From a virus: a stretch of DNA of 64,000 nt. The first letter of the stretch is position 1; every line of letters starts with the position of its first letter. Below are positions 21,304 through 56,951 of this stretch, in pieces. Position numbers and translations under genes: made by a program. The notes beneath the pieces are model-generated. The model had not been told where the DNA came from, ran no database searches, and saw only the letters and a program-made list of their open reading frames with translations. The stretch is taken from positions 1 to 64,000 of IMG/VR virus record IMGVR_UViG_3300045107_000159; one strand, written 5' to 3'.

Positions 21304-21803
21304 CCGCCATTAAGCCTTATTTGGCCGTGTTCTTTTCGTGGGCGCTCACCATGGCGGTTTACCTGACCGCCGGCGCGCGGCTGATTCGGCGCGAGAACCT
21401 GGTCGTGTACCGGTTCGCGCCGAAGGACCGCGAGTACGTCTTTCTGAATTTGCTTTGGTGGGCGGTTCCGCTGACCTGGCTGATCGCGCCGGCGCTCCCG
21501 TTCGGGCCTGGTTGGAGTGTCGGCCTCGGCTTGTTCGTCGGCGGCTCGACGCTCGTCATTTGGGCGCGCCGCGCGAACCCCTTCTTTTATCCGACGATCC
21601 GCAGGCCTCCGCGGCTCATCACCGCCGGCCCGTACCGCCGGCTCCGTCATCCGGGCTACATCGGGTTTACCGCGATGTCGCTCGGCTCGATCTTAATGCT
21701 CGGTCATCCTCTCGGATTTTTCCCGTTCGGCTGTTACGTCGGGCTCCTTATTTCCAGGGCCCACCGCGAAAACAATCTGCTCCGCGCTCATAAGCTCGTA
21801 TGA
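21300..21803 (+). CDS. ICMT/PEMT-family membrane methyltransferase-like protein
   Basis: Polytopic membrane protein. LITAGPYRRLRHPGYIGFTAMSLGSILMLG matches the conserved G-x-Y-x-x-x-RHP-x-Y core of isoprenylcysteine carboxyl / phospholipid methyltransferase families. ATGA overlaps at both ends. Confidence 0.6.
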   Translation: MTAIKPYLAVFFSWALTMAVYLTAGARLIRRENLVVYRFAPKDREYVFLNLLWWAVPLTWLIAPALPFGPGWSVGLGLFVGGSTLVIWARRANPFFYPTIRRPPRLITAGPYRRLRHPGYIGFTAMSLGSILMLGHPLGFFPFGCYVGLLISRAHRENNLLRAHKLV

Positions 21804-35500: not shown

Positions 35501-38500
35501 GTACCTTCCGCAGACTCCGGAGGCGGTTAAGACCCGTGCCGCGCACGTCGAGCGAATCCAGGAGATCGCCAACCGGATTCCCGATCTCCGCCGGCGGGCG
35601 GCCGCCGCTCCGCAAAATTTGCGACGGTTCCCGGCCGGCGCCGGCGTCGGGACTGAGAACGGCCCGGAAAGCCGGCTTTTCCGCTCGGTCACGAACCCGG
35701 AGGGCGGCGTACCGCAGACCGAAAGTGGCTATTCGCCGGGGGCCGGTTTCGAGCGCCTGGCCGAGAAGTCGCGCGGGCCGGTCGAAGACCAGACTTCGCT
35801 GCTCACCGCCATTCGGCGTATGGGCGGGATTAGCGACGACGGCGACACGTCGGGCGAACTCCGCCGGATCGGACTGAAGGAAGCCGGTACGACCGGCCTG
35901 GCGCGTCGCGACGGCCATTCCCCGGACACCATGCGCGAAATGCTGGCGTCCGAAGGCTACCTGCCGAAGGATTCGACCGTCAGCGACATGTATGACGCGA
36001 TCGAGGGCGAGCTGCGCGGCCGCGGGTCGAGCCGCGAATCTTCCGAGGAGGACCTCTCGCGCCATTACGAGGAAGAAGCCGAGCGCGAAAAGGCGCTCGG
36101 CGACATCGATCTGCGCCTCCGGACCGGAGAAATCGACCAATTCGACGCCACGCGCGAGCGTAACAAACTGGTCCGCCCGCAATACACGCCGGCGGAAACC
36201 GGTACCGAGCCTATCGAGAGTTACAGCCGTAGCCCTCATCTAGCGGGCGGGACGATTGAGCTCGACGGCGCGACGTACCTTGTCAGAAACGAGCAGGGCG
36301 ACGTCCTGGGCGCCAACGCGAATAAGATGGCGGCCGTTCGTAACGCGGAAGACCGCGCCAGTGGTAGCGGCGACTTCGCGATCAATGAGGAGGGGCGCTC
36401 CGTTTACGCCCCTCAATCTGAAGAGAAAAACGTCACGCCGAGACTCGTCCGGCCGACTGAGCGCGAATCCGTTCCCAAAGCCACGGCCGAAAATATTGAC
36501 GAGCTGCGGCGCAGACGTGATGTATTATCCCGCCTCCGCGCTGACCGGGGCGGGGAGATGTCCGACGACCTCGAAGACGAGTACAAAGAGCTCGGGGCGC
36601 AGATCATCCCCTACGAGGACTCGCAGAGGACGCCGGAGGAGAAGCGCGCGTTAGAGCAGGCGCCCCCCTGGGCTGACACCCGACCGTGGCGGCCGCCGAC
36701 GCGCAAAGAAACGCTCCGCGCGGTCGAAACCGCCGAGCGCGAAGTCGACGAAGAGATCGCCGAGGCCGTCGAAAGCGCTGACCCTGAAGAGGCCGAACTC
36801 CTCGAAAACGCCGCGCAACTTGTTGACGGACTTCTCGGCAGAGTGAACGCGGACGTCGACACCGCGGAACTGCTTGAACTTGCCATAGGAGGCGATGCCG
36901 ATGCTGAAGCGACCCTTACCCGATACGCCGAGCGAAAGCTCAACGCCGGCGCTGACGCCGTTCGAGACCTTATCGAGGCCGGACGATCTGAGCGAGAGCG
37001 AGAGCGAACAGCCGAGCGACCAGACGAGCGACCAGACGAGCGGCGAGACGAACGACCAGGAGCTGAAGAACGCGAAAGCGAGAGTCGCGATGAAACGGGC
37101 GCTCCTGTCGCAGCACCGGAGGAGCGGCCTCAAGAGCCAGGCGCACCGAGCCGCCCGGCGTCCGCGCAGACACTAGACCTTCTTTCCGTCGACCCGGCGA
37201 CCGTGGCGGTCGCCGACTTCGACACCTACCTCGGATCCCTCGAACAACTCAGAAACGATCAGCTGGTCGGCAAGGTGGAGCTCGAAGATTGGGCTAACCG
37301 ACAGCTCCGGGCTAAGCTGAAGCGCGCCAACGAAGTCCGCGTGAAGCTCCGCAAGGAAGGCAAGCTCGGGCCGAAGAACCCACCCCGCCAAGGTAAACAG
37401 AAGCAGCTGAAGAAAGACGAGCTCGGCCGTCGCCTGATGGCGGAGCAAGGCCTTGGCGCTCGCCTCGAAGAAGCCATCGCCGGGTACGGGCGCGGTCTCG
37501 TTTCCATTTCCGATCTGCGCTCGCAATTCCCGGACGTCGGCAAAGAAGCCTTCGACCGCGAAATCGGCAAACTTCACGACCAGCAGCGAGTCGCGCTGCA
37601 TGAGCATGACTGGCCAGCCGGCATGACCGAGGACGCGCGCAACGCCCTCGTCGAAAGGCCGGCCCGGGATGCGCGGACGGGCCAGCCCGGCAAGGCTTAT
37701 TACAACGGCGTCACGCTGCGTGAAGGCGTTAAGCCTGGCGAGGAGGTAAAGCCGAAGGAAGGCCCGACGCTCTACCACGGCTCGCACGAGGCGCTCACCG
37801 CGCTCGGCGTCCGGACGCCGAAAACCTTCGACAGCTTCGGCACCTGGTTTACGAGCGATCCGGAGCTCGCCGGCCATTACGGCGCGAACGTGTACGAGTC
37901 CAAACTGCCGGCGGATTTGAACCTGATCGAGTACGAGGGTAACGGCCAGACCGGAGACCCGACCGCCGACATCAACCGGAAAATCCTCGCCAGCCCCGAT
38001 GTGGCCAGGCGGAGCGGCTTTGAGAAAGAGGCCGCCATCCTCGAAAAGACGCAACCGGACACGCCCCGCCTGAACGAGCTCACGCGCAAGTTGGAACATT
38101 CCGGCCAGCCGCTGACGCCGGCGGAGCAGAAAGAGCTCCGGCAATTGCGGGAAGCCGCGGACGCCTCGCGGACACTCGGCAAAAGCCAGCGTTACATGCA
38201 GACGTTGCGCCAACAGACTGAGGCCGCCGGCTATGACGGCATTGTCTGGCGGAACGTGATGTACGACGTCTCCGACAGGCCGCACGACGTTTACGTGATC
38301 TTCAACAAAGAAGATTTACCGGTCACGAAGCGCCAGGCCGCCGCGCCGAAGGCGAAGCCCGTCGAAGCGGCGAAGCCGGCCGCCGCCGCGGAGATGACGC
38401 CGGAGGAGATGATCGCCGAGGACGAGCGGCGCGAAGTCGCGCGCGTGAAGCGCATCGACGACTTTATCAACGACCATAACGAAACGCCCTTCCAGGCGCC

Positions 38501-41500
38501 GTTACGCGACGGCAAGTCGCTGATCGTCCACCGCTCCGTTAAGCCGGAGTACAAGGACAAGTGGCAGGTCACATGGCTCGACAAGGACGGCGAGCCCTTC
38601 AGAGACACCGCGTTCAAAGACTTCCGCGAGACGCTGGACGAGCTCACGCGCTTTTACGGACTCGACCTCGACCAGGCCTCGGTCGCGCCGGCCGCACAGG
38701 CGCAGCCGCAGGCCTCCGCGCCGGCGGAGTTCGGCGCCGAGAACAAAGTCTTCACGCGCGACCGCGCCGACAAAGCGCGCGACCTCCTGAAGAAGAAATT
38801 CGCCGAGATGTCGCGGCAGACGAACGCCGGCGTCCCGATCGATCCGGAGATGATCCAAGCCGGCGTGGACCTGGTCGGTTATTACGTCGAGGGCGGCGCG
38901 CGCACGTTTGCGGACCTGACCAAGCGCATCATTGGCGACTTGGGCGAGTCCGCCCGGCCGTACGTGAAGTCTTGGTATCTGGCCGTGCGGAATTATCCGG
39001 GCTTCGATAAGAGCGGGATGGAATCGGAAGCCGATCTCGACCGCCTCGAATCCGGCGAAGAACAGCCGACGCTCACTCATCGGGATCCCGAACTTGACCG
39101 CAAGCCGATACTCGCCGAGACGAAAGACGGCCGCAAGATCGTCGCCAACCCCGCGAACGAGAGCGGGGTGTCCGTAGTAAAGGACCGCTCAGAGGACATG
39201 GGCGGATACTCGTCTAGTTCGACGCAGGTCGACCTGCCGAAAGACATCGCGGACCAGGTCGTCGCGTTTGGTAAGAAAATCCCCGACTCCGCGCTGACGG
39301 GAGACGGTCGCGAGAAGCGGCCGCATGTCACGATCCTCTATGGCCTACATGGTTTCGACCCGAAGTTCGTCCAGGCGGCGCTGGAAGGCGAGCGGCCTGT
39401 CAAAGTCACGTTTGGTAAGGTGTCACTCTTCGAAAACGACGAGAGGGACGTGGTCAAAGTCGATGTAACGAGTCCGGATTTGCACCGCCTCTATGCAAAA
39501 GTTCTCAAGTCTCAGCCGAACACACAAACCTTCCCCGAGTACAAGCCGCACGCGACGATCGCCTATGTGCGAAAAGGCCAGGGCGCGAAGTACGTCGGCG
39601 ACAACTTCCTCGAAGGGAAGTCCATCACGCTCGACAAGGTCGTTTTCTCCGGGCGCGACGGCGAGGAGACGGAGATCCAGTTAAACGGCAAGCCGGCCGA
39701 GCAGTTGGACGAAACTCAGGCGGCCGAACCCGTGGAAGCGCCGGCGGAGCAGCCCGCGGCCCGCGACTACGGCACGCCGGCGGAGCCGAACATTCCTGAC
39801 CTGGCGGCCGCGTTCTCTGAAAAATTTGCAAAAGGCGAGGGCTTCCGCACGACGGCCGAGGCGCGCGCGTACGCTGCCGAGCTCCTTGGCGGCGAAGTCG
39901 GGGCCGGATCGCCGGCGGCGAAGCAGATCGACGAGGCGGTTGAACTCGGCGCCGTGCGCGCCGGGCGCGACTTGGCCGCCAAGGGACTTTCGTCGGCGGA
40001 GACTTACGCCGGCATGCTGAAGATCCTCGACGCTCAGCCGACGCTCAACGAACGCACGTCCACGTCCATCGCGAACCAGGCCTTTTCTACGCCGGTACCG
40101 CTGGCTTTCGCCGCGCAGCAGCTCGCCGGCGTCGACGAAAAAACGACGGTCTACGAGCCGACGGCGGGCAACGGCGCGCTCGTGATGGCGGCGAAGCCCG
40201 AGAACATTACGGCGAACGAGCTCAATCCGGAGCGCGCGGCCAACCTGCGCGAATCGATCGACGCGGCCGAAGTCTCGAACGCCGACGCCACGCAGTTCGA
40301 CCCGGGCAAAAAGTTCGACGTCGTGATCGCGAATCCCCCATTCGGCCCGGTTCGGACCGAGAACGGGTCAAAGCGGTTCCAGACGCCATTCGGCGAGACC
40401 ACGGAAATCGACCACGCGATCGCGTTCAAGGCGTTAGAGTCGATGAAGGACGACGGGAGCGCGGTTTTGATCGTCGGCGGAATCTCGCCCCTGGCCAAGT
40501 CGGAGGAGGCGCGATCGGACGCGTACAACACCTCAGCGAAAAGACGCTTCTATTTTTACTTGTACCAAAATTATAATGTTGTCGACCATTTCACGGCCGC
40601 CGGTTCCATGTACAAAAAGCAGGGCGCGGGCTGGCCTGTAGACGTGATCGTAATTAAGGGGCGCGGAAAGTCGGGGCTGGAGCTCCCGGCCGTCGAAGTT
40701 CCGCGGATCATCAGCAACTATGACGAACTCGGCAATCTTATCGAGAACCCCCGCCAGCCAGCCGCAAGGCCGGCCTCAAATCGTGTATTGGAGTCCGGGG
40801 AACGCGGAGCTCGGAGTGATCAAGGCGGCGGTAGACATGCCGATCAGCCACGCGGATTACGTCGACCTTCTGTGTCAACGGCTGGAGGAGAGGCTCAAGC
40901 GGGAGGAAAATCCGGAGCAAGTCCTGGCGGACGCCCGCGAACAACTCCGAAGCTCGTTCGGGAGCCTAACTTATTTGAAGACGCCGACCGAGTGGATTCT
41001 GGAAAACCCGCAGATACAGGAGAGACTCAACTCCCTGCGCGTGAGCCCGCCCAAGGGCTTCCGGATGAAACCAGGTCCGGACCAGCAGCGGCTGCGGGAG
41101 GCTTACGAACAGACCAGTCTGCTCCAGTGGGTGGACGAACTGACGTGGGGGCTCGACGAACACCTGTCGTAGCCGAAACCGAGTCACATTCCCCTTACAA
41201 ACCGCTTAGCAAAGCCAACAGCCTGAACGTCGCAGTCCCTAGGAATATGAGCGGGGCGACGGAAAAGGCTCTCTCCGACTTCGAGGAGCGCCACGGCTCC
41301 CCGGACGAATACCTGGCCGAAAAACTCGGCTACGACGTCAAAGACATCCCGAAATATTTCGGCGCCGAACAGGTCGACGCTGTCGCGCTGGCCGTCTCGA
41401 ACATCGAGGCGGGTAAGGGTTTCGTGATCGGAGACCAGACCGGAATCGGCAAAGGGCGCACGAATGCGGCGATAATCCGCTACGCGATCAAGAACGGGAA

Positions 41501-44500
41501 GACGCCGATCTTCGTGACGCAGAAGCCCGCGCTCTACGCCGACATGATTCGCGACCTGTCGGACATCGGTATGCCGAACGCGCGCGTCCTCATCACCAAC
41601 GGCGGCGAGTCGATCCCGCTCAACGACGCCGGCACGGAATGGATGCAGGCGGTTAAGGACGCCAAGGACAAGGACCAAAAGGCGCCGCCGAAACCCTCCG
41701 ACGCGAAAGTCTTCCGCGCGAAACCCGACCACGATCAAATGCTCGAGCGCTTGGCGCAGTCCGGCAAACTCGCCGGCTATGACGTTGTCTTCACGACCTA
41801 CGACCAGATGAACCCGCAGGGCGGCAAGTTCGACCGACCGCGACATGGGGCCGTGTCTAGGTTGGGTGACGGTGGCGTAGTAATTCTGGACGAGTCCCAC
41901 ACCGCCGGCGGGACGGAGCCGGGCGCGCGGAGCAATCCGAACCAGCAGACGCGAAGTAAGTTTTTCCGCCAGCTTGTCAATAAGGCGGGGTCGGTTTTCT
42001 ACAGCTCGGCGACGTATGCCAAGCGTCCCGACGTGATGGATTTATATTCGAAAACCGACCTCGGCCAACTCGGCGGCAACAAGACGAGCCTGGCCGACCT
42101 CTTCCACCGCGGCGGCGTCGCGCTCCAGCAGGTCGTGGCGTCGAAACTGGCCGAGGCCGGCCAATATCTCCGGCGCGAGCGCACCTTCGACGGCATCCGC
42201 TACGACCCGCAGGTCGTCAAGGTCGAGAAGGAGCAGGCCGAACACGTTAGCCGCGCCATGGCGGTTATCGCCGCTTTCGACGAGGCGAAGAAGGGCGCGA
42301 TCAAGGCTCTCGACAAAGAGGCCAAGCGCGAGGGCAAGTCGCTGAGCGGCGACGGCTCGACCGGATCGGCGGGAGCCGATTCCACGAACTTTACGTCGTT
42401 GATGCACAACGTCGTCGACCAGATGCTGCTCGGACTGAAGGCGGAGCCGGCCGCGCAGCAGGCCATCGAGGCGATTAAGCGCGGCGAAAAGCCCGTCTTG
42501 ACGGTCTCGAACACGATGGAGTCCTTCTTGAAAGAGGCGGGGCTCTCGCCGGGCGACCCCGTCGATCTGTCCTTCCGGGACATCCTTCTGCGATACCTGA
42601 ATCGAAGCCGCGACGTTACCATTCGGGACCGCGACGGTAAACGATCGCGGCGGCCGCTGAGCGACGACGAACTCGCCCGGGGCGGCGCGCTCAGCGCCTT
42701 CGAGGCGGCCGAAGACTTCATCCGCGACGCCGATTTCGCGGACATTCCAATCTCGCCGATCGACTACGTCCGCCAAAAAATTCAGGCGGCCGGCTATTCG
42801 GTGGACGAGATCACCGGCCGCGGGACGCAGGTCGATTACACCGGCAAAATGCCGATCTTGAAAGCCAGGTCGTCGGCCGATACGAAGGTCGCCGGACGCC
42901 GGCGCGTCATTCAGCAGTTCAATAACGGCAAGCTCGACGCGCTGATTCTTAACCAGGCCGGATCCACCGGTATCAGCCTGCACGCCTCCGAAAAGGTTGA
43001 GGACAAGAACGTGCGGCACATGATCATCTGGCAGCCCGAGAAGAACATTGACACTCACATGCAGATGCTCGGGCGCGTCAACAGGACCGGCCAGGTCGTC
43101 GTCCCTCGCTACACGCAGATGATCGCGGACGTCCCCGCCGAGAAGCGGCCGGCCGCCGTGCTTCTGAAGAAAATGGCTTCGCTCAACGCCAACACGACCG
43201 CCTCCCGCAAGTCGGCCGTCCAGACCGAAGGCGTTACGGACTTTATGAACGAGCTCGGCGACGAAGTGATCGCGCGGTTGATGGCGACCGAGGGCGACAT
43301 CCACCGCAAGCTCGGCAGTCCGCTCGATTACGACGGCGATTCGATGGCTTCGGCCGAAGCGGCGCGCCGCGTGACCGGCCGCATTCCCCTCCTGCCGATC
43401 GCGGAGCAGGAGGCGCTATACGACCGCATCGAGCAGGAATACAAGGATTATCTCGAACAGCGCGACGCGATGGGCGACAATCCGCTCGAAGCGAAGACGA
43501 TGGACTTTCGCGCGGAAACCCTCAAAAAAGATTTGCTCGTCGAGGGCACGCCGGGCAGTCCGTTCAGCGAGCCGGCGTACCTGGAGCGCGTTAAAATCCA
43601 GGTTCCCGTCAAACCGTACACGCAGGCCGAAGTAATGGGGATGCTGCGCGATAACCTCGGCCTCGGCGAGTCGGCCGAGCTCGGCGAACTGCAGCAGGCA
43701 GGGAAGCGCCAGGTCAAGGAACTCCGCGACCAGGTGCGGGCCCGCGTCGACGATTTCAAGGACAACATGGCGTCGGAGTACGACAGCGACGCCACCCTAC
43801 AGGCGCAGCGGCAGAAGGCCGACCAGACGTTCTTGCGGTGGAACGCGATCGCGAATCTCGTCACCCCGGGGTCGACCGTCACGGTCGAGACGCCGTCCGG
43901 GAGCGTGTCCGGCGTAGTTATCAGCCTGCAGGAGCGCGGGAAGCCGAAGAACCCGGCCGCCTTCGGCGCCTGGCAGGCGCGCCTTGCCGTCCTCGACGGC
44001 CGCGAGCTCCGCTTTAGCTTCAACGACTTGGTCGACAAGGGCGGCCAGCCGCGCGTGAAGTTCACCGACGAAGTTCAACGCTTCAACCAGGAGACGGGGC
44101 TTTTCGAGTATCGGCCGATGCTCCCCGAGTTCGACGATTCGCAGGGGCTGAAGAAGCAGACGCGTTACATGGTGACCGGCAACATCGTTTCCGGTTATTC
44201 GAAGATCCCCAAGGGGCAAATCCTCAACTACACGGACGCCGACGGCGTGGTGCGCCAGGGCGTGCTTATGCCGGCGAATTTCGACGCGGACAAGGCGATG
44301 CAGGAAATGCCTGTGGAGTTCAAATCCGCGGACCACGTCCTCCAATTCATCGACAAGTCTGGCGCCGTGACGCTCTCCGACCCGCAACCGGCTTTCAGAA
44401 TTTCGCGCGGCAAGAATGGCAAGGTTTTGATGGCGGCCTCCGGGCAAAAGGCGAACGCCGGAAAAATCATCCTCAGTCCGGCCTTGCGAGACATGGGCAT

Positions 44501-47500
44501 CGAGTTTTCCGGCAACCGCACGCGCATGACGGCGCAAATGGACCAGGAGACCGCCCGCCGCGCGATTTGGGGCATCCTCTCGGGCGAGGTAACCGGGGAG
44601 CCTGAAACGCTTCAGGCCGAAAACCTGCGCGACGTGGCGAAAGGGATCGTCAGCAGCGGCTCCGGGCCGGCGCGAGAGCGGTCGCGGGATTGGCAGACGA
44701 AATCGGTCGCGATGGCCGAATCGCTGGCCGACATCGCCGAAAATACTCGAATCCGCGTTCCGAAGTCTCCGTCCCGCGCCAACATGATCTATGGCAATGA
44801 GCAGGCTCACGCCTGGGTCGATAAGGCTGATACGCGCATTCATGGCGTACGGGAGCCCTTCAACGGGATGAACCTGTCGAAGCAGGAGGCCAAGCAGATG
44901 GCGGAGGAAATCCGCCGCGAGAAGTACTGGTGGAGAGACGAGGCCCCGGACGTCAAACGCCGGGCCGACGCCGCGATCGACAAGCTGGCCGACGCCTTCG
45001 ACAACGCCGCGGACAAGTTCGACCGCGTGATCTACGTTCGCGCGCAGGGGCGCGGGTTCCGCAATCTGCGCGGCACTGTATATCACGAGCTCACGCACAA
45101 CGCGGAGCGGACGTACCGCTCGGTCAAGGGCTGGTTCGCGGCGCAACCGGTCTTTGAGAAGATCAAGGCGGCGCTCGAAGACAAGGGTTACAAGCCCCAC
45201 GAGATGATTTCCGAGTCGGTGGCGCACATCCTCGGTGGACAGCGCCGCCAGTTAGGCTTATCGTTGAAGGAGGCGGTGGATTACCTCGACAGTTATTTTG
45301 CAAATATTTCATTCGCGAACGGTCGCGAATCCGTCAACTCGTTTAATCCGATGAACGCCGCGCCGGAAATGCGCCAGGCGCTGCGCGAAGCAAAGGAGAA
45401 ACATGGGCCAAGAGAACCAGTTAGAATTGATGAAGAGGCGATTCAGCGAGCGATACGGCGACGCTCCGGAGGCGACGGAGAATCCGGAGAGCGGGACCGA
45501 CCTTTACGACGACCTCAGCCAGGCGAAGGAGGCTTGGCAGACGCGGGGCAAAGACGGCTTGAAAGACCTACTGGAGTCGCGAGAGAACGAGTCGCGGCCG
45601 ACGAAGACGACGAGCTGACGCCGCACGAGAAGCTTGTCGAGGATTTCGGGAAAGACCGCGATTACATTTCCGATTTCTTTTACGACGACCTTCCCGGCAA
45701 ATTCGACCCGAAAAAACTGATCACCGACCAGTCGCGCGCCATTTGGGACGCTTACCATAAGCGCCTGAGCGACTTCGTCGAGGACTTCTCAGGCCAGCCC
45801 GCCAAAATGGCCGCTCAAATTAAAGCCGCGCAGGCCGAACTCAGCCAGGGCGAGAGCGAGTACCAACGGCTTAATGACCGTTATTACGCACTCCCCGAGG
45901 ATTCCGCCGAAGAGGCCGAAGTCATGGAGAAGATGGAGGCCCTCGAAGCCTCGAACGCGCAGCTCGAAGAAAAAATCGACTACCTCCAAGACGAGCATGG
46001 CTATCTGAAGAACGATGTCCGGGAGTTTAAGCGTCTGGTCGAGCGCAACACCCGTTATGATGAGGCGGACATCGAAAGCGACCTCGGGCGCGAGGCCAAC
46101 CACAAAATCTTCCAGATCGAAAACGAGCGCGACGACGCAATGCGGAAGGCCTTGTCCGATTTACAGAATCCGCCGGCGTCGAAGCCGGATTTCGTCGTCG
46201 AGGCCGAGCAGCGTCTGCGTGAGGCGGCCGCCGGCCAGCTGGCGGGGTCCGGGACGAGGCAGCTCGCCGACCTGGCGATCGTCACTGGCTGGCGCGTCTA
46301 CGAGAAAGGCATGTCCTTCGCGCAGTGGGCGCGCGAGGTCGTCGCAAACCATGGCGACAAGATTCGCCCGTACCTGCAAGGGGCTTGGCGCAAGGTCCGG
46401 AGCGCGAAGGCCGATCAGAAAGTCGGCCGGTCCATCGAACGTCTCTCGGATGAGTATGACTCTCTTACGGACAGGCAGGGCGATCTTCGCAAGGCGATGT
46501 TTGGCCACGCCGACGCCGTCGAAGCGGCGACCAATGAGCGGTACTCGATCGACGAAGACGTCCGCCGGCTGAACGAGCAGCTTAAAAACTCGGTCGCGAA
46601 CACCAGGGCGGCGCAGGCGGCTATCCGCCGTTTGGCCATCGACTCCGAAAGCCCGGAGATCACGAAAGAGAAGGCGCGGCTCGATCGGCAGATCGTCGAA
46701 GGCCGCAAGAATATCGAGCGCCTAAAAGCCCGCCTCGACCGTATCCGCGACGAACGCGACCACATAGGCGACGAGCTGGAGACCTTCGAGGCATGGGACC
46801 AGCCGCGGCTCGACCCCAAAATGGAGGATTGGGCGAAACGCGTCTCAGAAATCCGGAAAGAGCGGCACGCGGAGCAGGCGAAGAAACGCCCCCCGGGGAC
46901 TTACATGGGCGCCGGTTTCGGTTCGTTGCAGGCGCTTTTCGACAGCAAGCCGGCGCCGAAAACGACGCCGCTGCGCGAAGTCGTGAACAAACTCGGTCAC
47001 GAGCCGCTAGGCGTCGACCCGGCGCAGGTCGCGAAGGCCACTCAGGAGCAGTTCATTGAAGCGCTCTCGAAGGGCAAGAACGGCACGTTGCCCGGCGCGC
47101 GCGCGCAGTATTGGGCCGAGAAGCTCGGCGCGAAGAAGACCGCCGACCGCCTGGCCGAGAAACAGGCCAAATTCATCGAAGACGGCGTCGACCTAGTCGC
47201 CAAGATCGCGGACGCGACCGAGCGCATGGCGAAAGCGCAGCGGGGAAGCGCCGAGTACGAAAAGGCCAAATCCGACCAGGACCGCGCCCGGATCAAGCTG
47301 GCGAATCAGTTCTCGAAGGCGGGCGAGTACACCCACCCGTTCGACTACGCCGCGAAAGCGTACAAGGCCTCACTGCTGAGCGCGCTGCACATCCCCTATT
47401 TCAACATCGTGGCGCAGGTCGCGCAGTTCCCCTTCCATGAGGCTCAAAAGGCGGCGGACTGGCTCGTCCCTCAATCCGTGTTCAAAAAGTGGGGCATCCC

Positions 47501-49481
47501 GTACGAAAAACAGCTCTCGGCCGACGTCCGCACCTGGGGCCCGGCGATGTGGCGCGAGCTCGGCGCGCTGAAGAAGGGCGCGGGATCGATCTTCGGCGAC
47601 GTCGCCGACATGATGTATTACGGGACCACCACCCTCGGACAGAATGTCGAGATGGCGGGCGAGGTTCACAAGAAACGCATGGCGGCTAAGCAAGGCGAGC
47701 GCGAGAAGATTACCGGCGGCACGGACAAGTACGAGCTCGGGAATCGGCCGAAAATGATCCCCGGGGTCGACCAGGCGCTGATGACGGTCGGCCGCGTTCA
47801 GGGCGCCGCCGACGTTCCGTTCTTTAACGTGATGTTCGCGACGGCGCTGGCGGCCGAGGCCGACGCCACGGCGAAGAAGATCGCCCGCGAGAATCCCGAA
47901 CTCGAGTTCACGGCCGAAGAGGTGAAGGCGCTCGCGCGCGACCTGGCGCATGAGCCGTCGCCGGCGATGATCGTTCACGCCGCGGACGAGGCCAACCGGT
48001 TCAAATTGGATTATCCGACCTGGGGTTACGAGCAATTGCAAAAGTTGCGCAACTCGGAGCGCATCAAACAGGGCGGCCGCCACGTCGAGGCCGCTTGGAA
48101 GGCCGCGCTCGATTTCGTTGTTCCGTTCTCGAAAATCCCCTTGGCCGCGGTGGATATGGCGCTTTTCCGTTACAGCCCTGTCGGGTTCGGCCGCGTCGGC
48201 TCCCGCCTGGTGAAGGCGGGCAGGGAATTGAACGAGGCGAAACGGACGGCGGAGCGCCAGGGCCGCAAGCTCGGCGCGACCGAAGGCCGGCAATCGGAGG
48301 CCTTCGCGCGCGACACGGCCGAACTCTACCGCCAGGCGATCGTCGGCTCGATCTCCTGGGCGGCGCTCGGCCTCCTGGGCGCGCTCGGATACGCCTCATT
48401 CACCGGTGGCGACGACGACAAGGACAGGAAGGGCGCCGCGGCGAAAGAGGCCCTCGGCGAGAAGTACACGCCGGAAATGATCGTGGGGGATTACGCCGTC
48501 GACGTGGGCAAGCTCGGGCCGGTCGGCCAGGCCGCCGCGCTCGGCGGCCGCATCGCCGCGGCCTCCCGCCGGCGGTACGAGGAGAAGCGCGAAGATTACG
48601 AGCCGGAATCGAAGCGGCTCGACAGGACGTTCGGCGCGATCGGCAAGGGCGCGTTCTTGGACAACCCCCTCGGCCAGGGCGCGAAGGACGTTATCGACGC
48701 CTTCGATTCCGGCAGCCCGGGCGCCGGCGCCGCGAAGTTCCTCGGCGGTAAGGCCGGCGCGATCGTCCCCGGGGCGCTGCGCGACGTCGCCAAAATGACC
48801 ACACCAACGAAGGTCATGCCGGACGACAATTCCGGCCTCGGTAGGATCCGCGGCGATCTCCGCTCCGCCGTGCCGTCCCTCCGGGCGCAAATGCAACCGC
48901 GCCTCGACGCGCTCGGCCGGCCGGTCGACCAGCCGAATCCGTTCGCGTTCGTCCGTTCGCTGCGCCACAACGACCAGGTCGAAGACACTCTCCGCGTCGG
49001 CTCCGGACTTCCGAAGCCCGCGCGCGACCAGGGCGAGCCCGCGGCAGAGTACAACCGGCGGCTGCAGCGCAACGCCGGCAACCTGAACGACACAATGCGG
49101 AGCCTGCGGCGCGATCCGGAGATGCAGACGGCCTCGCCGCTCGCGCGCCGGGCGATCTATGAGCAGGCCTTCAACTCGAAACAGATGGAGCGCGCCGGCA
49201 AGCTTTCGGAAGAGTCCGTCCAGGCGGAGCGCCACATCGAGGGGTTGAAGGCCGACGCCTTCGCGGCGCTGGCCGGCTCCGCCGAGTACCAGGCGCTCAA
49301 CGAGAAGGATAAGGCGGCCGCCCGTAAGCTCATTACAGAGGAGCTGAAGCGCTACCGCGCCCGGGTGGGCAGCGTCGACAGGGCAGGGAGGCCGCGCGCC
49401 GAGAAGCCGGCCGAGATCCCTGATTGGACGCCGGGCAACTTGGCTAGGGCGGCTTTGCAAAATTTGCGGGCCGGCCGGTGA
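32589..49481 (+). CDS. giant polyvalent virion protein (5,630 aa): SLT, ART-like, 2H phosphoesterase, N6-MTase, Sno/SNF2-like helicase, HExxH peptidase
   Basis: Uninterrupted 16,893-nt frame with the catalytic signatures listed as separate domain features. The MTase-plus-helicase core resembles phage P1 DarB and plasmid methylase-helicase fusions. See the findings on two internal stretches whose coding signature is out of frame. Confidence 0.7.
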   Translation: MPFDELDDQEQSGGQTPSGGQPEQQEMTLDQFEDHYAKVFKIPKYLRQAMKEQESGADDTKALSKKGAVGRWQVMPDTAAKYGLDTNDPFDNAYAGMRYLREKYDQVDSKITEPGARWQAALAGYHGGERQINHINKTGEIAPGNDGNIETGNYADNIMRRWQQLSSGDHSTGLNKVEMGAGDTMDLGTGKITKPAPAQPATKPKDVLDGVPVDPSNPFEFRAPLAKLPAEQPSRLPGGPIRADVFAGGTPPQNLQTPQRARLERPTRQLEQPSPFDFRGPLAQVPEGMGQGPQPGATVKVDVGQPANVAPTSLRVMREDARARELARAKAPHDHSGPTWRDLPQETRNMLENPQAAAALTPDARDYLESLRAADAQAQAAYERDTDIQNAPWYPEQLANRAARGFSGTIDSSVKGLSLLHPDIENRLRQSFIMGTTEEDQQILRRRFPVDPTDDSYLAKAAEAAGSAVPFAATSAMGGFLGFPEFLIPSVMGAASNAGQTYDEAIAAGQNPDQAKRAAVIGAFIGLSEGFGVGSLGAPAEHAATHGLLRSIGDEAMEEFLQEGFSQVMNNINAKELSGYDTKRAITEGVAESALLGGLVGGGFGGAHHVVGAAAGSLADRADRQAGARAVQNEGFAPLNLTPTTMGPTQLTSLRQAAQPEYRKRLQEAAAPAQAQTQGAEAAAAAGATPAAESAPAAPLTGRARLDAAVQRLQSLQQPKKGEKPTTAQTLADLETKGQQLATFAIQRADADPDTANLALSQSIGHYQRAINTLKGSPEYQAELMSIAGGQAAETPLRDKMLELDKTLKGLQSFSERDARAEADRVKAQKEAEKKAAQDEKERKAAEVKAQREADERARVDARNKKVADAERNRAEQEAKRNAAEAQKTLDRRQAEESRIRERDEAERAKADQASTREAEGEIRRMRLFDESNAAADRAAADSRSREESGDYSGAIGALRTQQDALQTALRYLPQTPEAVKTRAAHVERIQEIANRIPDLRRRAAAAPQNLRRFPAGAGVGTENGPESRLFRSVTNPEGGVPQTESGYSPGAGFERLAEKSRGPVEDQTSLLTAIRRMGGISDDGDTSGELRRIGLKEAGTTGLARRDGHSPDTMREMLASEGYLPKDSTVSDMYDAIEGELRGRGSSRESSEEDLSRHYEEEAEREKALGDIDLRLRTGEIDQFDATRERNKLVRPQYTPAETGTEPIESYSRSPHLAGGTIELDGATYLVRNEQGDVLGANANKMAAVRNAEDRASGSGDFAINEEGRSVYAPQSEEKNVTPRLVRPTERESVPKATAENIDELRRRRDVLSRLRADRGGEMSDDLEDEYKELGAQIIPYEDSQRTPEEKRALEQAPPWADTRPWRPPTRKETLRAVETAEREVDEEIAEAVESADPEEAELLENAAQLVDGLLGRVNADVDTAELLELAIGGDADAEATLTRYAERKLNAGADAVRDLIEAGRSERERERTAERPDERPDERRDERPGAEERESESRDETGAPVAAPEERPQEPGAPSRPASAQTLDLLSVDPATVAVADFDTYLGSLEQLRNDQLVGKVELEDWANRQLRAKLKRANEVRVKLRKEGKLGPKNPPRQGKQKQLKKDELGRRLMAEQGLGARLEEAIAGYGRGLVSISDLRSQFPDVGKEAFDREIGKLHDQQRVALHEHDWPAGMTEDARNALVERPARDARTGQPGKAYYNGVTLREGVKPGEEVKPKEGPTLYHGSHEALTALGVRTPKTFDSFGTWFTSDPELAGHYGANVYESKLPADLNLIEYEGNGQTGDPTADINRKILASPDVARRSGFEKEAAILEKTQPDTPRLNELTRKLEHSGQPLTPAEQKELRQLREAADASRTLGKSQRYMQTLRQQTEAAGYDGIVWRNVMYDVSDRPHDVYVIFNKEDLPVTKRQAAAPKAKPVEAAKPAAAAEMTPEEMIAEDERREVARVKRIDDFINDHNETPFQAPLRDGKSLIVHRSVKPEYKDKWQVTWLDKDGEPFRDTAFKDFRETLDELTRFYGLDLDQASVAPAAQAQPQASAPAEFGAENKVFTRDRADKARDLLKKKFAEMSRQTNAGVPIDPEMIQAGVDLVGYYVEGGARTFADLTKRIIGDLGESARPYVKSWYLAVRNYPGFDKSGMESEADLDRLESGEEQPTLTHRDPELDRKPILAETKDGRKIVANPANESGVSVVKDRSEDMGGYSSSSTQVDLPKDIADQVVAFGKKIPDSALTGDGREKRPHVTILYGLHGFDPKFVQAALEGERPVKVTFGKVSLFENDERDVVKVDVTSPDLHRLYAKVLKSQPNTQTFPEYKPHATIAYVRKGQGAKYVGDNFLEGKSITLDKVVFSGRDGEETEIQLNGKPAEQLDETQAAEPVEAPAEQPAARDYGTPAEPNIPDLAAAFSEKFAKGEGFRTTAEARAYAAELLGGEVGAGSPAAKQIDEAVELGAVRAGRDLAAKGLSSAETYAGMLKILDAQPTLNERTSTSIANQAFSTPVPLAFAAQQLAGVDEKTTVYEPTAGNGALVMAAKPENITANELNPERAANLRESIDAAEVSNADATQFDPGKKFDVVIANPPFGPVRTENGSKRFQTPFGETTEIDHAIAFKALESMKDDGSAVLIVGGISPLAKSEEARSDAYNTSAKRRFYFYLYQNYNVVDHFTAAGSMYKKQGAGWPVDVIVIKGRGKSGLELPAVEVPRIISNYDELGNLIENPRQPAARPASNRVLESGERGARSDQGGGRHADQPRGLRRPSVSTAGGEAQAGGKSGASPGGRPRTTPKLVREPNLFEDADRVDSGKPADTGETQLPAREPAQGLPDETRSGPAAAAGGLRTDQSAPVGGRTDVGARRTPVVAETESHSPYKPLSKANSLNVAVPRNMSGATEKALSDFEERHGSPDEYLAEKLGYDVKDIPKYFGAEQVDAVALAVSNIEAGKGFVIGDQTGIGKGRTNAAIIRYAIKNGKTPIFVTQKPALYADMIRDLSDIGMPNARVLITNGGESIPLNDAGTEWMQAVKDAKDKDQKAPPKPSDAKVFRAKPDHDQMLERLAQSGKLAGYDVVFTTYDQMNPQGGKFDRPRHGAVSRLGDGGVVILDESHTAGGTEPGARSNPNQQTRSKFFRQLVNKAGSVFYSSATYAKRPDVMDLYSKTDLGQLGGNKTSLADLFHRGGVALQQVVASKLAEAGQYLRRERTFDGIRYDPQVVKVEKEQAEHVSRAMAVIAAFDEAKKGAIKALDKEAKREGKSLSGDGSTGSAGADSTNFTSLMHNVVDQMLLGLKAEPAAQQAIEAIKRGEKPVLTVSNTMESFLKEAGLSPGDPVDLSFRDILLRYLNRSRDVTIRDRDGKRSRRPLSDDELARGGALSAFEAAEDFIRDADFADIPISPIDYVRQKIQAAGYSVDEITGRGTQVDYTGKMPILKARSSADTKVAGRRRVIQQFNNGKLDALILNQAGSTGISLHASEKVEDKNVRHMIIWQPEKNIDTHMQMLGRVNRTGQVVVPRYTQMIADVPAEKRPAAVLLKKMASLNANTTASRKSAVQTEGVTDFMNELGDEVIARLMATEGDIHRKLGSPLDYDGDSMASAEAARRVTGRIPLLPIAEQEALYDRIEQEYKDYLEQRDAMGDNPLEAKTMDFRAETLKKDLLVEGTPGSPFSEPAYLERVKIQVPVKPYTQAEVMGMLRDNLGLGESAELGELQQAGKRQVKELRDQVRARVDDFKDNMASEYDSDATLQAQRQKADQTFLRWNAIANLVTPGSTVTVETPSGSVSGVVISLQERGKPKNPAAFGAWQARLAVLDGRELRFSFNDLVDKGGQPRVKFTDEVQRFNQETGLFEYRPMLPEFDDSQGLKKQTRYMVTGNIVSGYSKIPKGQILNYTDADGVVRQGVLMPANFDADKAMQEMPVEFKSADHVLQFIDKSGAVTLSDPQPAFRISRGKNGKVLMAASGQKANAGKIILSPALRDMGIEFSGNRTRMTAQMDQETARRAIWGILSGEVTGEPETLQAENLRDVAKGIVSSGSGPARERSRDWQTKSVAMAESLADIAENTRIRVPKSPSRANMIYGNEQAHAWVDKADTRIHGVREPFNGMNLSKQEAKQMAEEIRREKYWWRDEAPDVKRRADAAIDKLADAFDNAADKFDRVIYVRAQGRGFRNLRGTVYHELTHNAERTYRSVKGWFAAQPVFEKIKAALEDKGYKPHEMISESVAHILGGQRRQLGLSLKEAVDYLDSYFANISFANGRESVNSFNPMNAAPEMRQALREAKEKHGPREPVRIDEEAIQRAIRRRSGGDGESGERDRPLRRPQPGEGGLADAGQRRLERPTGVARERVAADEDDELTPHEKLVEDFGKDRDYISDFFYDDLPGKFDPKKLITDQSRAIWDAYHKRLSDFVEDFSGQPAKMAAQIKAAQAELSQGESEYQRLNDRYYALPEDSAEEAEVMEKMEALEASNAQLEEKIDYLQDEHGYLKNDVREFKRLVERNTRYDEADIESDLGREANHKIFQIENERDDAMRKALSDLQNPPASKPDFVVEAEQRLREAAAGQLAGSGTRQLADLAIVTGWRVYEKGMSFAQWAREVVANHGDKIRPYLQGAWRKVRSAKADQKVGRSIERLSDEYDSLTDRQGDLRKAMFGHADAVEAATNERYSIDEDVRRLNEQLKNSVANTRAAQAAIRRLAIDSESPEITKEKARLDRQIVEGRKNIERLKARLDRIRDERDHIGDELETFEAWDQPRLDPKMEDWAKRVSEIRKERHAEQAKKRPPGTYMGAGFGSLQALFDSKPAPKTTPLREVVNKLGHEPLGVDPAQVAKATQEQFIEALSKGKNGTLPGARAQYWAEKLGAKKTADRLAEKQAKFIEDGVDLVAKIADATERMAKAQRGSAEYEKAKSDQDRARIKLANQFSKAGEYTHPFDYAAKAYKASLLSALHIPYFNIVAQVAQFPFHEAQKAADWLVPQSVFKKWGIPYEKQLSADVRTWGPAMWRELGALKKGAGSIFGDVADMMYYGTTTLGQNVEMAGEVHKKRMAAKQGEREKITGGTDKYELGNRPKMIPGVDQALMTVGRVQGAADVPFFNVMFATALAAEADATAKKIARENPELEFTAEEVKALARDLAHEPSPAMIVHAADEANRFKLDYPTWGYEQLQKLRNSERIKQGGRHVEAAWKAALDFVVPFSKIPLAAVDMALFRYSPVGFGRVGSRLVKAGRELNEAKRTAERQGRKLGATEGRQSEAFARDTAELYRQAIVGSISWAALGLLGALGYASFTGGDDDKDRKGAAAKEALGEKYTPEMIVGDYAVDVGKLGPVGQAAALGGRIAAASRRRYEEKREDYEPESKRLDRTFGAIGKGAFLDNPLGQGAKDVIDAFDSGSPGAGAAKFLGGKAGAIVPGALRDVAKMTTPTKVMPDDNSGLGRIRGDLRSAVPSLRAQMQPRLDALGRPVDQPNPFAFVRSLRHNDQVEDTLRVGSGLPKPARDQGEPAAEYNRRLQRNAGNLNDTMRSLRRDPEMQTASPLARRAIYEQAFNSKQMERAGKLSEESVQAERHIEGLKADAFAALAGSAEYQALNEKDKAAARKLITEELKRYRARVGSVDRAGRPRAEKPAEIPDWTPGNLARAALQNLRAGR
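32691..33083 (+). other. lytic transglycosylase (SLT) domain of giant ORF
   Basis: KEQESGADDTKALSKKGAVGRWQVMPDTAAKYGL ... AYAGMRYL ... LAGYHGG matches the ES ... GLMQ ... AYNAG pattern of the SLT family. Confidence 0.75.
33344..33354 (+). repeat. dispersed dyad 11-mer GCAAAATTTGC, copy 4
   Basis: Exact match. Read as PQNLQT. Confidence 0.9.
35612..35622 (+). repeat. dispersed dyad 11-mer GCAAAATTTGC, copy 5
   Basis: Exact match. Read as PQNLRR. Confidence 0.9.
37761..38320 (+). other. ADP-ribosyltransferase-like (ART-PolyVal-type) domain, tentative
   Basis: GPTLYHGS (YHGS at 37773-37784) ... FGTWFTSDPELAGHYG ... VYESKL ... GYDGIVWRNV ... DVYVIF. This is an H...[FY]-x-[ST]...E-like arrangement seen in ART domains of polyvalent proteins. 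My recognition is weak. Confidence 0.35.
39205..39690 (+). other. 2H phosphoesterase (LigT / 2-prime-5-prime RNA ligase-like) domain
   Basis: Two H-x-T motifs in hydrophobic context at the typical ~75-aa spacing: RPHVTILYG (HVT at 39324-39332) and KPHATIAYV (HAT at 39549-39557). Confidence 0.65.
39990..40710 (+). other. N6-adenine DNA methyltransferase domain
   Basis: SAM-binding motif I VYEPTAGNGAL (~40149-40178) and catalytic motif IV NPPF (40332-40343, in DVVIANPPFG). Confidence 0.8.
40720..41172 (+). CDS. embedded +1-frame coding-like segment (150-aa ORF) inside giant ORF
   Basis: Hand-counted GC3 is ~77% in this frame versus ~41% in the giant-ORF frame over the same nucleotides. The translated peptide is globular-looking (W, Y, C and amphipathic helices), whereas the giant frame here reads R/G/P/A-rich. 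The +1 frame is open from 40654. No good SD precedes ATG 40720. Confidence 0.4.
   Translation: MTNSAILSRTPASQPQGRPQIVYWSPGNAELGVIKAAVDMPISHADYVDLLCQRLEERLKREENPEQVLADAREQLRSSFGSLTYLKTPTEWILENPQIQERLNSLRVSPPKGFRMKPGPDQQRLREAYEQTSLLQWVDELTWGLDEHLS
41330..43230 (+). other. Sno (strawberry-notch)/SNF2-like helicase domain
   Basis: Motif I GDQTGIGKGRT (41430-41462), DExH box VILDESH (DESH at 41889-41900), C-terminal lobe LILNQAGSTGISLHA, and motif VI QMLGRVNRTGQ. Confidence 0.8.
45084..45098 (+). other. HExxH zinc-metallopeptidase motif of giant ORF
   Basis: RGTVYHELTHNAE (HELTH), with a downstream E/H (ESVAHILGG). Matches metallopeptidase modules of polyvalent proteins. Confidence 0.55.
45403..45618 (+). 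CDS. embedded +1-frame coding-like segment (71-aa ORF) inside giant ORF
   Basis: AAGGAG (45393-45398) lies 4 nt upstream of the ATG. Hand-counted GC3 is ~81% in this frame versus ~38% in the giant-ORF frame. The peptide is acidic and helical-looking, while the giant frame reads R/G/E-rich. Confidence 0.4.
   Translation: MGQENQLELMKRRFSERYGDAPEATENPESGTDLYDDLSQAKEAWQTRGKDGLKDLLESRENESRPTKTTS
49457..49467 (+). repeat. dispersed dyad 11-mer GCAAAATTTGC, copy 6
   Basis: Exact match 12 nt before the giant-ORF stop. Read as LQNLRA. Confidence 0.9.
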
Positions 49482-55736: not shown

Positions 55737-56951
55737 TCAAATTTTGGTACTGGCTTCCTTCGTCTCCTCACCGTCTTTTTCCCCGTCATTTTTGATCGCT
55801 AATGTTTCGAGAGCGGCGGCGGCGCGCGCGACCGAGCCGGGGTGCATGTGGGAATAATGCGCGATCAGATGTTTCGCCCGGTGACCGGTTATTAGTCCGA
55901 TGGTGTCGTAGTCGAGGCCGGATTCGACTAGCCTGGTCGTGACCGTGTGACGCGCTGTGTGAAGCACCAGGCCGTCTTCCAGGTTCTTACCGTACGGGAT
56001 GCCCAACTGCTGACAGGCCCGCCCGAGAATCACGTAAAAACTCTGCGTGATCCCTCCCTTCTTCGAAAAGATGTATTTCCCCTTCCAGGTTTTCTTTCGC
56101 TCGTTGAGCAGTCTCTCAATCGGCGGAATTAGCGGGATCTCTTTCGGCGTTAAGGTCTTGGTCTGGTAAATGTAAATTTTCCTTCGCTCCCAATCCACGT
56201 CAGTCCATTTGATCGCCGTAATCTCGCTGTGCCGCGCCGCGCTCATCATGGCGAACTCGAATATTTGCGCGACCCTAAGACGGCCCCGGTAATTTATCGT
56301 CCGAGTTCTTTTCATTTCCCCTTCGTCTTCGCCCGGCGGCCGCCGCAAGTGGGCGATGATCCGCCTGTGCTCCTCTTCAGTGACGATCCTTTCCCGGCGC
56401 GATTTTACGACCTTTAGTCTCGGCACCTTCGGCGCTTTCCACTGCTCGAGCTCCGCGAAATAGTCGCCGGCCTGGTTGAGAGTCGAGGCGATGACCGTCA
56501 ACTCTCGGTTAATGGTCGAGTTCGCGACTCCGTCCGCCAGGCGTTGGTCCACGTACATGCGTAGGTGGTGGGTCTTCATTTCGTCGACCCTCACGGAGCA
56601 TCGGTACTTGTCGGTTGGCGTGAAGTCTTCCGCTAGTTTCAAATGCGGGTCAATGAGCCTGAGCCATGTATACAAGACGCGCCGGGATCGGCTTCGCTCG
56701 ACCTGCTCCTGTATCGCGCGAAGTTTCTTCTCGATCAGTTCTTGCAGTTTCGGGCGGTTGATCGCCAGCGTAATGCCGTATTTCGCGTCCCGCTCCGCCC
56801 GCCGGATGCCGCTGACGACCTGCTCAGCCTGGTCGCGCGTCTCGAACTCGTAACGCCTAATTCGCTTCGAGCCGCCGCGGCCGTTGTTCACTCGGATGTC
56901 GTAGCCCCACATTTTTCGGCCGTGCTTCTCCGAATAACGTTTGCTGATCAT
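55737..56951 (-). CDS. int: tyrosine recombinase (phage integrase)
   Basis: 404 aa. Box I ARHSEITAIKWTDVD, box II LHTARHT (HxxR), and ITGHRAKHLIAHYSH (catalytic Tyr region). Confidence 0.85.
   Translation of the reverse strand: MISKRYSEKHGRKMWGYDIRVNNGRGGSKRIRRYEFETRDQAEQVVSGIRRAERDAKYGITLAINRPKLQELIEKKLRAIQEQVERSRSRRVLYTWLRLIDPHLKLAEDFTPTDKYRCSVRVDEMKTHHLRMYVDQRLADGVANSTINRELTVIASTLNQAGDYFAELEQWKAPKVPRLKVVKSRRERIVTEEEHRRIIAHLRRPPGEDEGEMKRTRTINYRGRLRVAQIFEFAMMSAARHSEITAIKWTDVDWERRKIYIYQTKTLTPKEIPLIPPIERLLNERKKTWKGKYIFSKKGGITQSFYVILGRACQQLGIPYGKNLEDGLVLHTARHTVTTRLVESGLDYDTIGLITGHRAKHLIAHYSHMHPGSVARAAAALETLAIKNDGEKDGEETKEASTKI

Follow-up and report, generated by a model that had tools for sequence, protein, structure and literature searches.

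In bacteriophage lambda, the whole of Rz1 is contained in the +1 frame of Rz; these spanin genes are independently initiated and their products are functionally coupled. A different pairing is found in polymorphic toxin cassettes, where a toxin domain is accompanied by a downstream immunity gene and the cassettes are shuffled between loci, with orphan or remnant copies. Out-of-frame genes are also known from the ShiLan domain, an insertion in mycobacteriophage DNA methylase genes that hides an HNH endonuclease in a second frame (Arsenault, Gosselin, & Gogarten, 2025, PMC11855218). The polyvalent proteins, for their part, include zincin-like metallopeptidases (MPTases), in which a helix carries HExxH, a conserved glutamate follows further downstream and helices flank a sheet of three strands, according to a survey that distinguishes 12 clades (Iyer, Burroughs, Anand, de Souza, & Aravind, 2017, PMC5512222). 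The locus considered here shares features with each of these systems. It lies in a 64,000-nucleotide stretch of viral DNA, positions 1 to 64,000 of IMG/VR record IMGVR_UViG_3300045107_000159 (hereafter the window), in which a 71-codon open reading frame (ORF) at 45403-45618 on the plus strand is embedded in the +1 frame of a giant polyvalent-protein gene, directly behind an HExxH module. Comparison with related loci indicates that this small ORF is most probably a genuine protein-coding gene.

The nested reading frame and its relatives

The nested ORF, which encodes MGQENQLELMKRRFSERYGDAPEATENPESGTDLYDDLSQAKEAWQTRGKDGLKDLLESRENESRPTKTTS and ends in TGA (45616-45618), lies wholly within the giant ORF (32589-49481), whose own frame (frame 0) remains open across it. 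Its position is precisely the 3' boundary of the HExxH module, and its ATG is preceded at a distance of 4 nt by the Shine-Dalgarno (SD) sequence AAGGAG (45393-45398, plus strand). The G+C content of third codon positions (GC3) is 0.81-0.82 in the +1 frame and 0.80 in the giant ORF overall, whereas in frame 0 it is 0.44-0.45 across the nested ORF and 0.39 across 45403-45590. The preliminary description of this DNA had the SD sequence, ATG, length and frame of the ORF correct in every particular, and the GC3 contrast that it reported is likewise borne out (0.82 in +1 against 0.44 in frame 0, or 0.39 over 45403-45590). In a codon-usage log-likelihood scan trained on the giant ORF, 45384-45626 is +1-like by 26 nats. 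Frame 0 reads 45405-45593 on the same strand as a 63-residue linker, GPREPVRIDEEAIQRAIRRRSGGDGESGERDRPLRRPQPGEGGLADAGQRRLERPTGVARERV, which has 15 arginines, 10 glycines and 14% hydrophobic residues. Because the frame-0 peptide is so poor in hydrophobic residues, an open +1 frame is expected by chance; +1 openness does not discriminate given such a peptide and is treated here as a caveat, not as evidence. What goes beyond chance is the codon bias, the conserved SD sequence and ATG, and the amino acid conservation of the +1 frame in relatives.

Relatives, cited here by L numbers for loci and P numbers for proteins, are uncultured metagenomic sequences, and their lineages are not phylogenetically independent, so that binomial values overstate significance. 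Anchoring on the helicase domain of the giant protein gives 97 related loci, and an exhaustive HMMER search with a hybrid query (frame-0 flanks joined to the +1 island) gives 18 module-bearing proteins. The DNA sample consists of nine of these 18, together with L002 and L081; P0001 and P0013 are not included. A profile hidden Markov model (HMM) of the module, run across the DNA collected, identifies 14 non-redundant modules. Behind each of the 14 stands a +1 ORF, 51-91 codons long, which starts within a few nucleotides of the module end. As the preliminary description pointed out, relatives could carry the island in frame with its flanks, which would speak for compensated frameshifts, or keep the overlap, which would speak for a nested gene; the overlap is kept in 14/14 and the island is in frame in 0/14. 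This is so whether the module is internal to a giant protein, opens a protein of 764-789 aa, occurs in duplicate or is only a truncated remnant, and frame 0 across the nested ORF in the relatives is a continuing Arg/Gly-rich segment. Strict linkage of the predicted small gene to the module is shown by these copies. In L002, for example, the module is followed in +1 by AAGGAG-N6-ATG and a 64-codon ORF with a GC3 of 0.70 as against 0.34 in frame 0, and ten relatives have 0.65-0.75 in +1 against 0.33-0.47 in frame 0, with gene-wide values of 0.49-0.67.

Several relatives are informative individually. P0016 (L110; 1,377 aa) has two modules, each with its own +1 ORF bearing the family motif behind it (1933-2088 and 3586-3756). 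On the 5' side of the 764-aa module protein P0005, L102/L103 (1-1000) carry a module remnant, truncated to the C-terminal half, and behind this remnant a complete family member of 82 aa (P0022, 494-742), which gene callers have annotated; the host frame is still open across 494-742, and P0013 is the matching frame-0 protein in a relative. The layout of L102/L103 resembles the orphan cassettes of polymorphic toxin loci. L111, a 15th module copy that is counted apart from the 14 non-redundant ones, is a variant of L104 (about 97-99% identical; L111 2172-2474 against L104 1746-2084) with a 35-nt deletion just 5' of the nested start. The deletion splits the large ORF and leaves the 91-codon small ORF, annotated as gene P0019, intact; L111 may represent natural variation, a pseudogene or an error of assembly. 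Family members (P0019, P0020, P0021 and P0022-24) have also been annotated as genes independently by gene callers.

L081 is the closest of the 97 loci (64% identity over 1,656 aa). At the site in question (13400-13450) it lacks a block corresponding to residues 4037-4532 of the giant protein (44700-46182: the module, the island and about 200 further residues), and is otherwise collinear with the window, with 55-64% identity on the flanking helicase and C-terminal segments. This suggests gain or loss of a cassette inside the polyprotein. Elsewhere in its giant ORF (about 14440-15320), L081 has a variant module in which REERFHQW replaces HExxH, followed by AAAAGGAG-N9-ATG and a 76-codon +1 ORF (MSEKSLES...RRAWAEGFKAGGEEEAKRRM); a possibly inactive peptidase (EExxH) still retains its nested ORF.

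Other searches yielded little. The hybrid query found nothing in a word-indexed protein search or in IMG/VR, and neither blastn of 44400-46600 nor tblastn of the module matched the phage and plasmid collections. Profile-guided locus scans of viral and metagenome collections returned only the L099 contig, and tblastn of the island peptides of both frames against the 97 helicase-anchored loci, most of which come from phages without the module, gave nothing significant.

The start signals are conserved along with the ORF. ATG is present at the homologous point in 13/13 nested starts tested, and in all 13 it is formed by a frame-0 NAT codon (His, Tyr or Asn) and a G-initial codon, although NAT accounts for only 26-57% of such codons gene-wide; multiplied over the lineages, these fractions give about 3e-5. 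An SD core (GGAG, GAGG or AGGA) is found at -18 to -4 in 13/13 nested starts, compared with 13.7% of other out-of-frame ATGs within the same genes (binomial P 6e-12, for lineages that are not fully independent), and its register relative to frame 0 varies between lineages. With the overlap kept in 14/14, and ATG and SD core each present in 13/13, the earlier reading of a +1 coding island with its own SD sequence and start codon is supported.

Amino acid conservation was assessed with leave-one-out profile HMMs, searched against the three forward-frame translations of the gene that had been left out. The +1 profile places the island in the window at 45472-45600 with 24.0 bits (E 7.6e-9), where the best background match is below 0 bits. 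It also recovers the island in L104 (20.1 bits), L098 (15.2), L099 (14.1), L110b (14.1) and L101 (9.6), against a background of at most 2.3 bits, and thus recovers 6/12 instances. The same procedure applied to the frame-0 peptides recovers 0/12, with a best score of 0.9 bits, so that it is the +1 peptide that is conserved and not the frame-0 peptide, the reverse of the pattern that the preliminary description had named as refuting its reading. The invariant +1 leucine is encoded by TTG, CTG, CTC or CTA, the third base also varies at invariant glycines and alanines, and the frame-0 residues on those same bases change freely. Pairwise local alignment of the window and L002 islands did not separate the frames (33 in +1, 38 in frame 0).

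The open host frame is itself unexpected. Given the +1 peptide, the probability under synonymous resampling that frame 0 stays open is 0.13 for the window and 0.003-0.025 for 11 relatives; per lineage, 87-99.7% of the resampled +1 sequences have frame 0 closed, and the product of the open probabilities is 1e-21.6. The nested ORFs are depleted in T at third codon positions (T3). The geometry is always +1 because the host frame then reads nested codon positions in the order (3,1,2), and a host stop codon needs T3, which can be avoided at little cost; no other arrangement is so readily kept free of stops. Taken together, the comparisons show both frames to be maintained by selection, frame 0 as an open, non-conserved linker and +1 as a predicted conserved protein.

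The predicted nested protein is acidic (8.1 kDa, pI 4.7), and AlphaFold2 (AF2) models it as three helices (residues 3-18, 28-48 and 50-64). Its conserved C-terminal motif, LSQAKEAWQTRGKDGLKDLLES (45514-45579, plus strand; alignments A4 and A8), is modelled as a helix-GG turn-helix over which the predicted local distance difference test (pLDDT) score is 82-84, and the pattern of the family is L-x2-A-x2-A-[WFY]-x3-G-G-x2-G-L-K-x2-L. The protein has no match in Pfam, PHROG, NCBIfam or PDB, and the peptide is without cysteine, signal peptide or hydrophobic N-terminus; neither its sequence nor its three-helix model has an HNH or other nuclease signature. The designed protein 6mrr, which matches the small-protein profile with E 0.013, was set aside as meaningless. 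The last frame-0 helix of the module, APEMRQALREAKEKH (45360-45404), resembles the N-terminal motif of some nested proteins (NFQEALKEYLSRH and ELKAALEGYF; L104/L102), and MAFFT aligned the two. The likeness may be a coincidence, or a trace of duplication or of frame slippage at the junction.

Alternative explanations and a proposed origin

One alternative is that the +1 ORF has no functional product and is a compositional by-product of a disordered Arg/Gly/Glu/Pro linker in frame 0. Resampling of frame 0 does leave +1 open in 60-100% of trials in most lineages, and the product over lineages is only 1e-4; the +1-like signal at 36889-37176, described below, is probably compositional too, and it is unconserved. 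Nucleotide divergence by codon position in the motif block is saturated (0.64/0.59/0.58) and uninformative, and position-specific rates consequently do not discriminate. However, a plain linker leaves unexplained a frame-0 GC3 that drops to 0.33-0.47 in every lineage when gene-wide values are 0.49-0.80. Nor does it account for the conservation of amino acids in +1 and not in frame 0, for synonymous changes at invariant +1 residues, or for an ATG and an SD core at every start tested, and the strong avoidance of T3 is required only under constraint on the +1 peptide. A by-product of composition is accordingly improbable. A +1 product might also be reached by a programmed +1 ribosomal frameshift near 45400, which would give a truncated polyprotein with a +1 tail to 45616-45618 and make AAGGAG a stimulator, as in prfB, instead of a ribosome-binding site. 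The prfB frameshift has an SD-like stimulator near the shift codon, and here an SD-like element 3 nt 5' of codon CAT recalls that geometry; moreover, conservation of the +1 peptide alone cannot separate initiation from frameshifting. The junctions, however, share no slippery or hungry-codon motif (AAA CAT GGG, AGA AAT GAA, CGT TAT GGC, CAA CAT GCC and others), and the ATG that all 13 have at the homologous point is not needed for shifting. A +1 stop lies only 2-6 codons 5' of the ATG in L104, L105, L109, L102 and L108, which leaves almost no room for a shift, and a truncated module, too, is followed by a family member, which gene callers treat as an 82-aa gene in its own right. Since there is no shift motif, +1 stops lie close to the ATG and a stand-alone gene exists, internal initiation is favoured, and frameshifting has only a slim chance of being the explanation.

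Two further explanations concern how the island came to be there. It could be a selfish read-through insertion of the ShiLan type, that is, a tolerated stop-free loop hiding an out-of-frame gene that serves the element's own spread. The design matches the published case (PMC11855218), and L081 lacks the block 44700-46182 at this site. Nonetheless, the hidden ORF lacks a nuclease signature and encodes a 71-aa helical acidic protein without database match; it is never absent where the HExxH module is present. Such an origin is very unlikely. Alternatively, compensated frameshifts or assembly indels near 45400 and 45600 might have displaced a peptide that really belongs to the giant protein. With 62% GC in the genome, coding segments quite commonly have an open (3,1,2) frame, and the probability of 0.13 for the window alone would permit this. 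Yet the offset is identical in 14 module copies from different samples and assemblers and with GC3 of 0.49-0.80, each copy has an ATG at entry and a stop at exit, none is in frame, and the combined probability that frame 0 is open by luck is 1e-21.6. By these comparisons, compensated frameshift or assembly error is effectively refuted.

Some observations tell against a genuine nested gene. Synonymous re-encoding of the Arg/Gly/Glu-rich frame-0 peptide keeps the +1 frame of the window open in 70% of trials, and the conserved K-E-K-H/Y-G at the module end is possibly kept partly for frame 0, which would inflate the SD and ATG statistics. Five of the 12 instances (L002, L102, L105, L108 and L109) are unrecovered by the leave-one-out +1 profile, and L110a scores only 1.1 bits; the nested family is demonstrably homologous only in its core, although the five unrecovered instances still share its position, ATG, SD sequence, length and codon bias. 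AF2 is only moderately confident of the nested peptide alone (mean pLDDT 65, predicted template modelling score 0.36). Finally, the relatives all come from uncultured metagenomes.

If, as seems most probable, 45403-45618 is a nested gene, ribosomes in frame 0 would read the region as an Arg/Gly/Glu/Pro-rich linker, poor in hydrophobic residues, that joins the HExxH module to the next domain, while others would initiate internally at AAGGAG-N4-ATG and produce an acidic protein of 71 residues and three helices. The HExxH module and the small gene behind it would then make up a single cassette. By reading through the small gene out of frame, the giant ORF could accommodate the module within the polyprotein and keep its companion gene. 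The small gene would be the older of the two readings, because codon usage is genome-like in +1 and not in frame 0 and because it is the +1 product that is conserved. The co-location of the two tentatively suggests that the peptidase module is the target or partner of the small protein, which would inhibit, regulate or chaperone it. It is also conceivable, if doubtful in its full extent, that module and nested gene are a mobile two-gene cassette of enzyme and cognate inhibitor or regulator, and that polyvalent proteins are partly built by out-of-frame read-through fusion across small genes, which survive as overlapping genes and the alternative reading of which becomes an interdomain linker. 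The first island described below would be another such product, and interdomain linkers in the giant proteins of phages and plasmids would systematically conceal genes that annotation has missed. L081, which lacks the block at this site and has its own variant module and nested ORF elsewhere, fits a movable cassette.

Other +1 islands and the host protein

A further +1 island, the first in the giant ORF, is a 150-codon ATG ORF at 40720-41172 (plus strand) between the methylase and the helicase; the codon scan flags 40734-41213. Its homologues are found by tblastn in 69/97 helicase-anchored loci, always in +1 and always inside the giant ORF, as an ORF of 130-150 codons just 5' of the helicase domain (for example L081 9471-9917 and L021 9498-9896), and the family is present even in phages of 39-43% GC. 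The start is ATG in 66/69, and in 42 the ATG directly follows a +1 stop, which excludes frameshifting into the ORF in those loci. Close to the N-terminus, family members have a conserved (I/V)AW(S/Y)P motif; no conservation is seen in the frame-0 peptide, and the island has no Pfam match. By these characters it is a different and much larger nested-gene family than that of 45403-45618. The view that two +1 islands in one ORF are non-random has stood up, although their shared +1 offset has a mechanical reason in the avoidance of T3.

A third candidate, at 36889-37176 (plus strand), was rejected. It is +1-like by 16-22 nats, but frame 0 is an acidic low-complexity repeat of the ERPDERPDE type, and the +1 peptides of the equivalent stretches in relatives show no cross-lineage conservation; its +1 signal is probably compositional. 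Other +1-biased segments in the window and its relatives likewise lack cross-lineage conservation.

The giant ORF of 5,630 codons (32589-49481, plus strand) is identified as a polyvalent protein from the ORF list, Pfam hits and homologous giant ORFs in L001-L096. It comprises an SLT lytic transglycosylase, ART-PolyVal, a 2H/Acb1-like phosphoesterase, an N6 methyltransferase and a Sno-type AAA_34/Helicase_C_4 helicase, after which come the HExxH module and a long C-terminal region. The module (frame 0, residues 4040-4274; 44706-45410, plus strand) is of zincin-like metallopeptidase type and ends in ...REAKEKHG. Its HELTH motif is at 45084-45098 and the invariant downstream glutamate lies within SESVAHILGG (45210-45239); module alignment A5 shows little or no variation at H127 (conserved in at least 90% of sequences), E128, H131 and E170, and the modules of some relatives (L081, L109 and L110) have EExxH instead of HExxH. 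The AF2 model (pLDDT 90.2) has strands at 27-30, 54-58 and 107-112, the HExxH helix at 118-134 and the glutamate-bearing helix at 164-176. The module has no Pfam match and no PDB sequence match, and Foldseek of the model against PDB gives nothing at E <= 0.001, with chance-level matches only.

The window as a whole belongs to a divergent (pro)phage with almost no PHROG matches. It includes a terminase-like ORF with a weak match to the terminase large subunit (2746-4833, plus strand), a 2,684-aa ORF with a tail-fibre-like C-terminus (21800-29854, plus strand) and a tyrosine integrase (55737-56951, minus strand), and looks like an integrated or temperate phage.

Significance and comparison with known systems

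Gene callers forbid long same-strand overlaps, and the annotation of phages and metagenomes therefore cannot show genes of this kind. In the window, linkers of one giant injected polyprotein would hold two unrelated nested genes, and both are conserved in many divergent phages. Multi-domain polyvalent proteins might, as the case suggests, grow in this way without losing intervening genes, and a simple screen for hidden genes would look for an Arg/Gly-rich linker with low GC3 and an SD-ATG in +1. Should it be true that the small protein controls a peptidase thought to process polyvalent proteins, it would supply the missing regulatory component, and such a regulator would explain how a self-cleaving polyprotein stays intact until delivery.

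With Rz/Rz1, the window shares a phage gene whose +1 frame contains a whole second gene on the same strand. Rz1, however, has the signal sequence and lipobox of a lipoprotein, and the part of Rz that it overlaps is structured, whereas the predicted nested product in the window has neither signal peptide nor cysteine and overlaps a non-conserved linker of a 5,630-aa polyprotein. The likeness to toxin-immunity cassettes is in the enzymatic module that is always directly followed by a small gene, in the apparent shuffling of the cassette between loci, and in the remnant copy in L102, where a truncated module stands before an intact small ORF. Immunity genes are separate downstream genes that the toxin ORF does not overlap, unlike the small gene of the window, and inhibition or binding would be attributed to the latter only by analogy.

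The HExxH module has the motif and predicted-fold features of the polyvalent-protein MPTases, and their context too is the same, with SLT, ART, methylase and SWI2/SNF2-type helicase within a single giant phage protein (Iyer et al., 2017, PMC5512222). The window differs from that survey in its nested ORFs: the words 'overlapping' and 'frameshift' occur zero times there, and such ORFs are not mentioned. The ShiLan domain and the window have in common a stop-free segment of the host frame, read through as a tolerated loop or linker inside a phage gene, and a complete second-frame ORF with its own start and stop that annotation pipelines miss. The hidden gene of ShiLan encodes a recognisable HNH homing endonuclease, starts with GTG, has no detectable ribosome-binding site, and is sporadic, in keeping with selfish homing (PMC11855218). 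That of the window, in contrast, would encode a 71-aa helical protein of no known family, has a strong SD sequence and ATG, and is tied to the HExxH module and not to a homing site. The nested-gene design itself is thus already known; what would be new is this nested-gene family and the polyvalent-protein context in which it is found.

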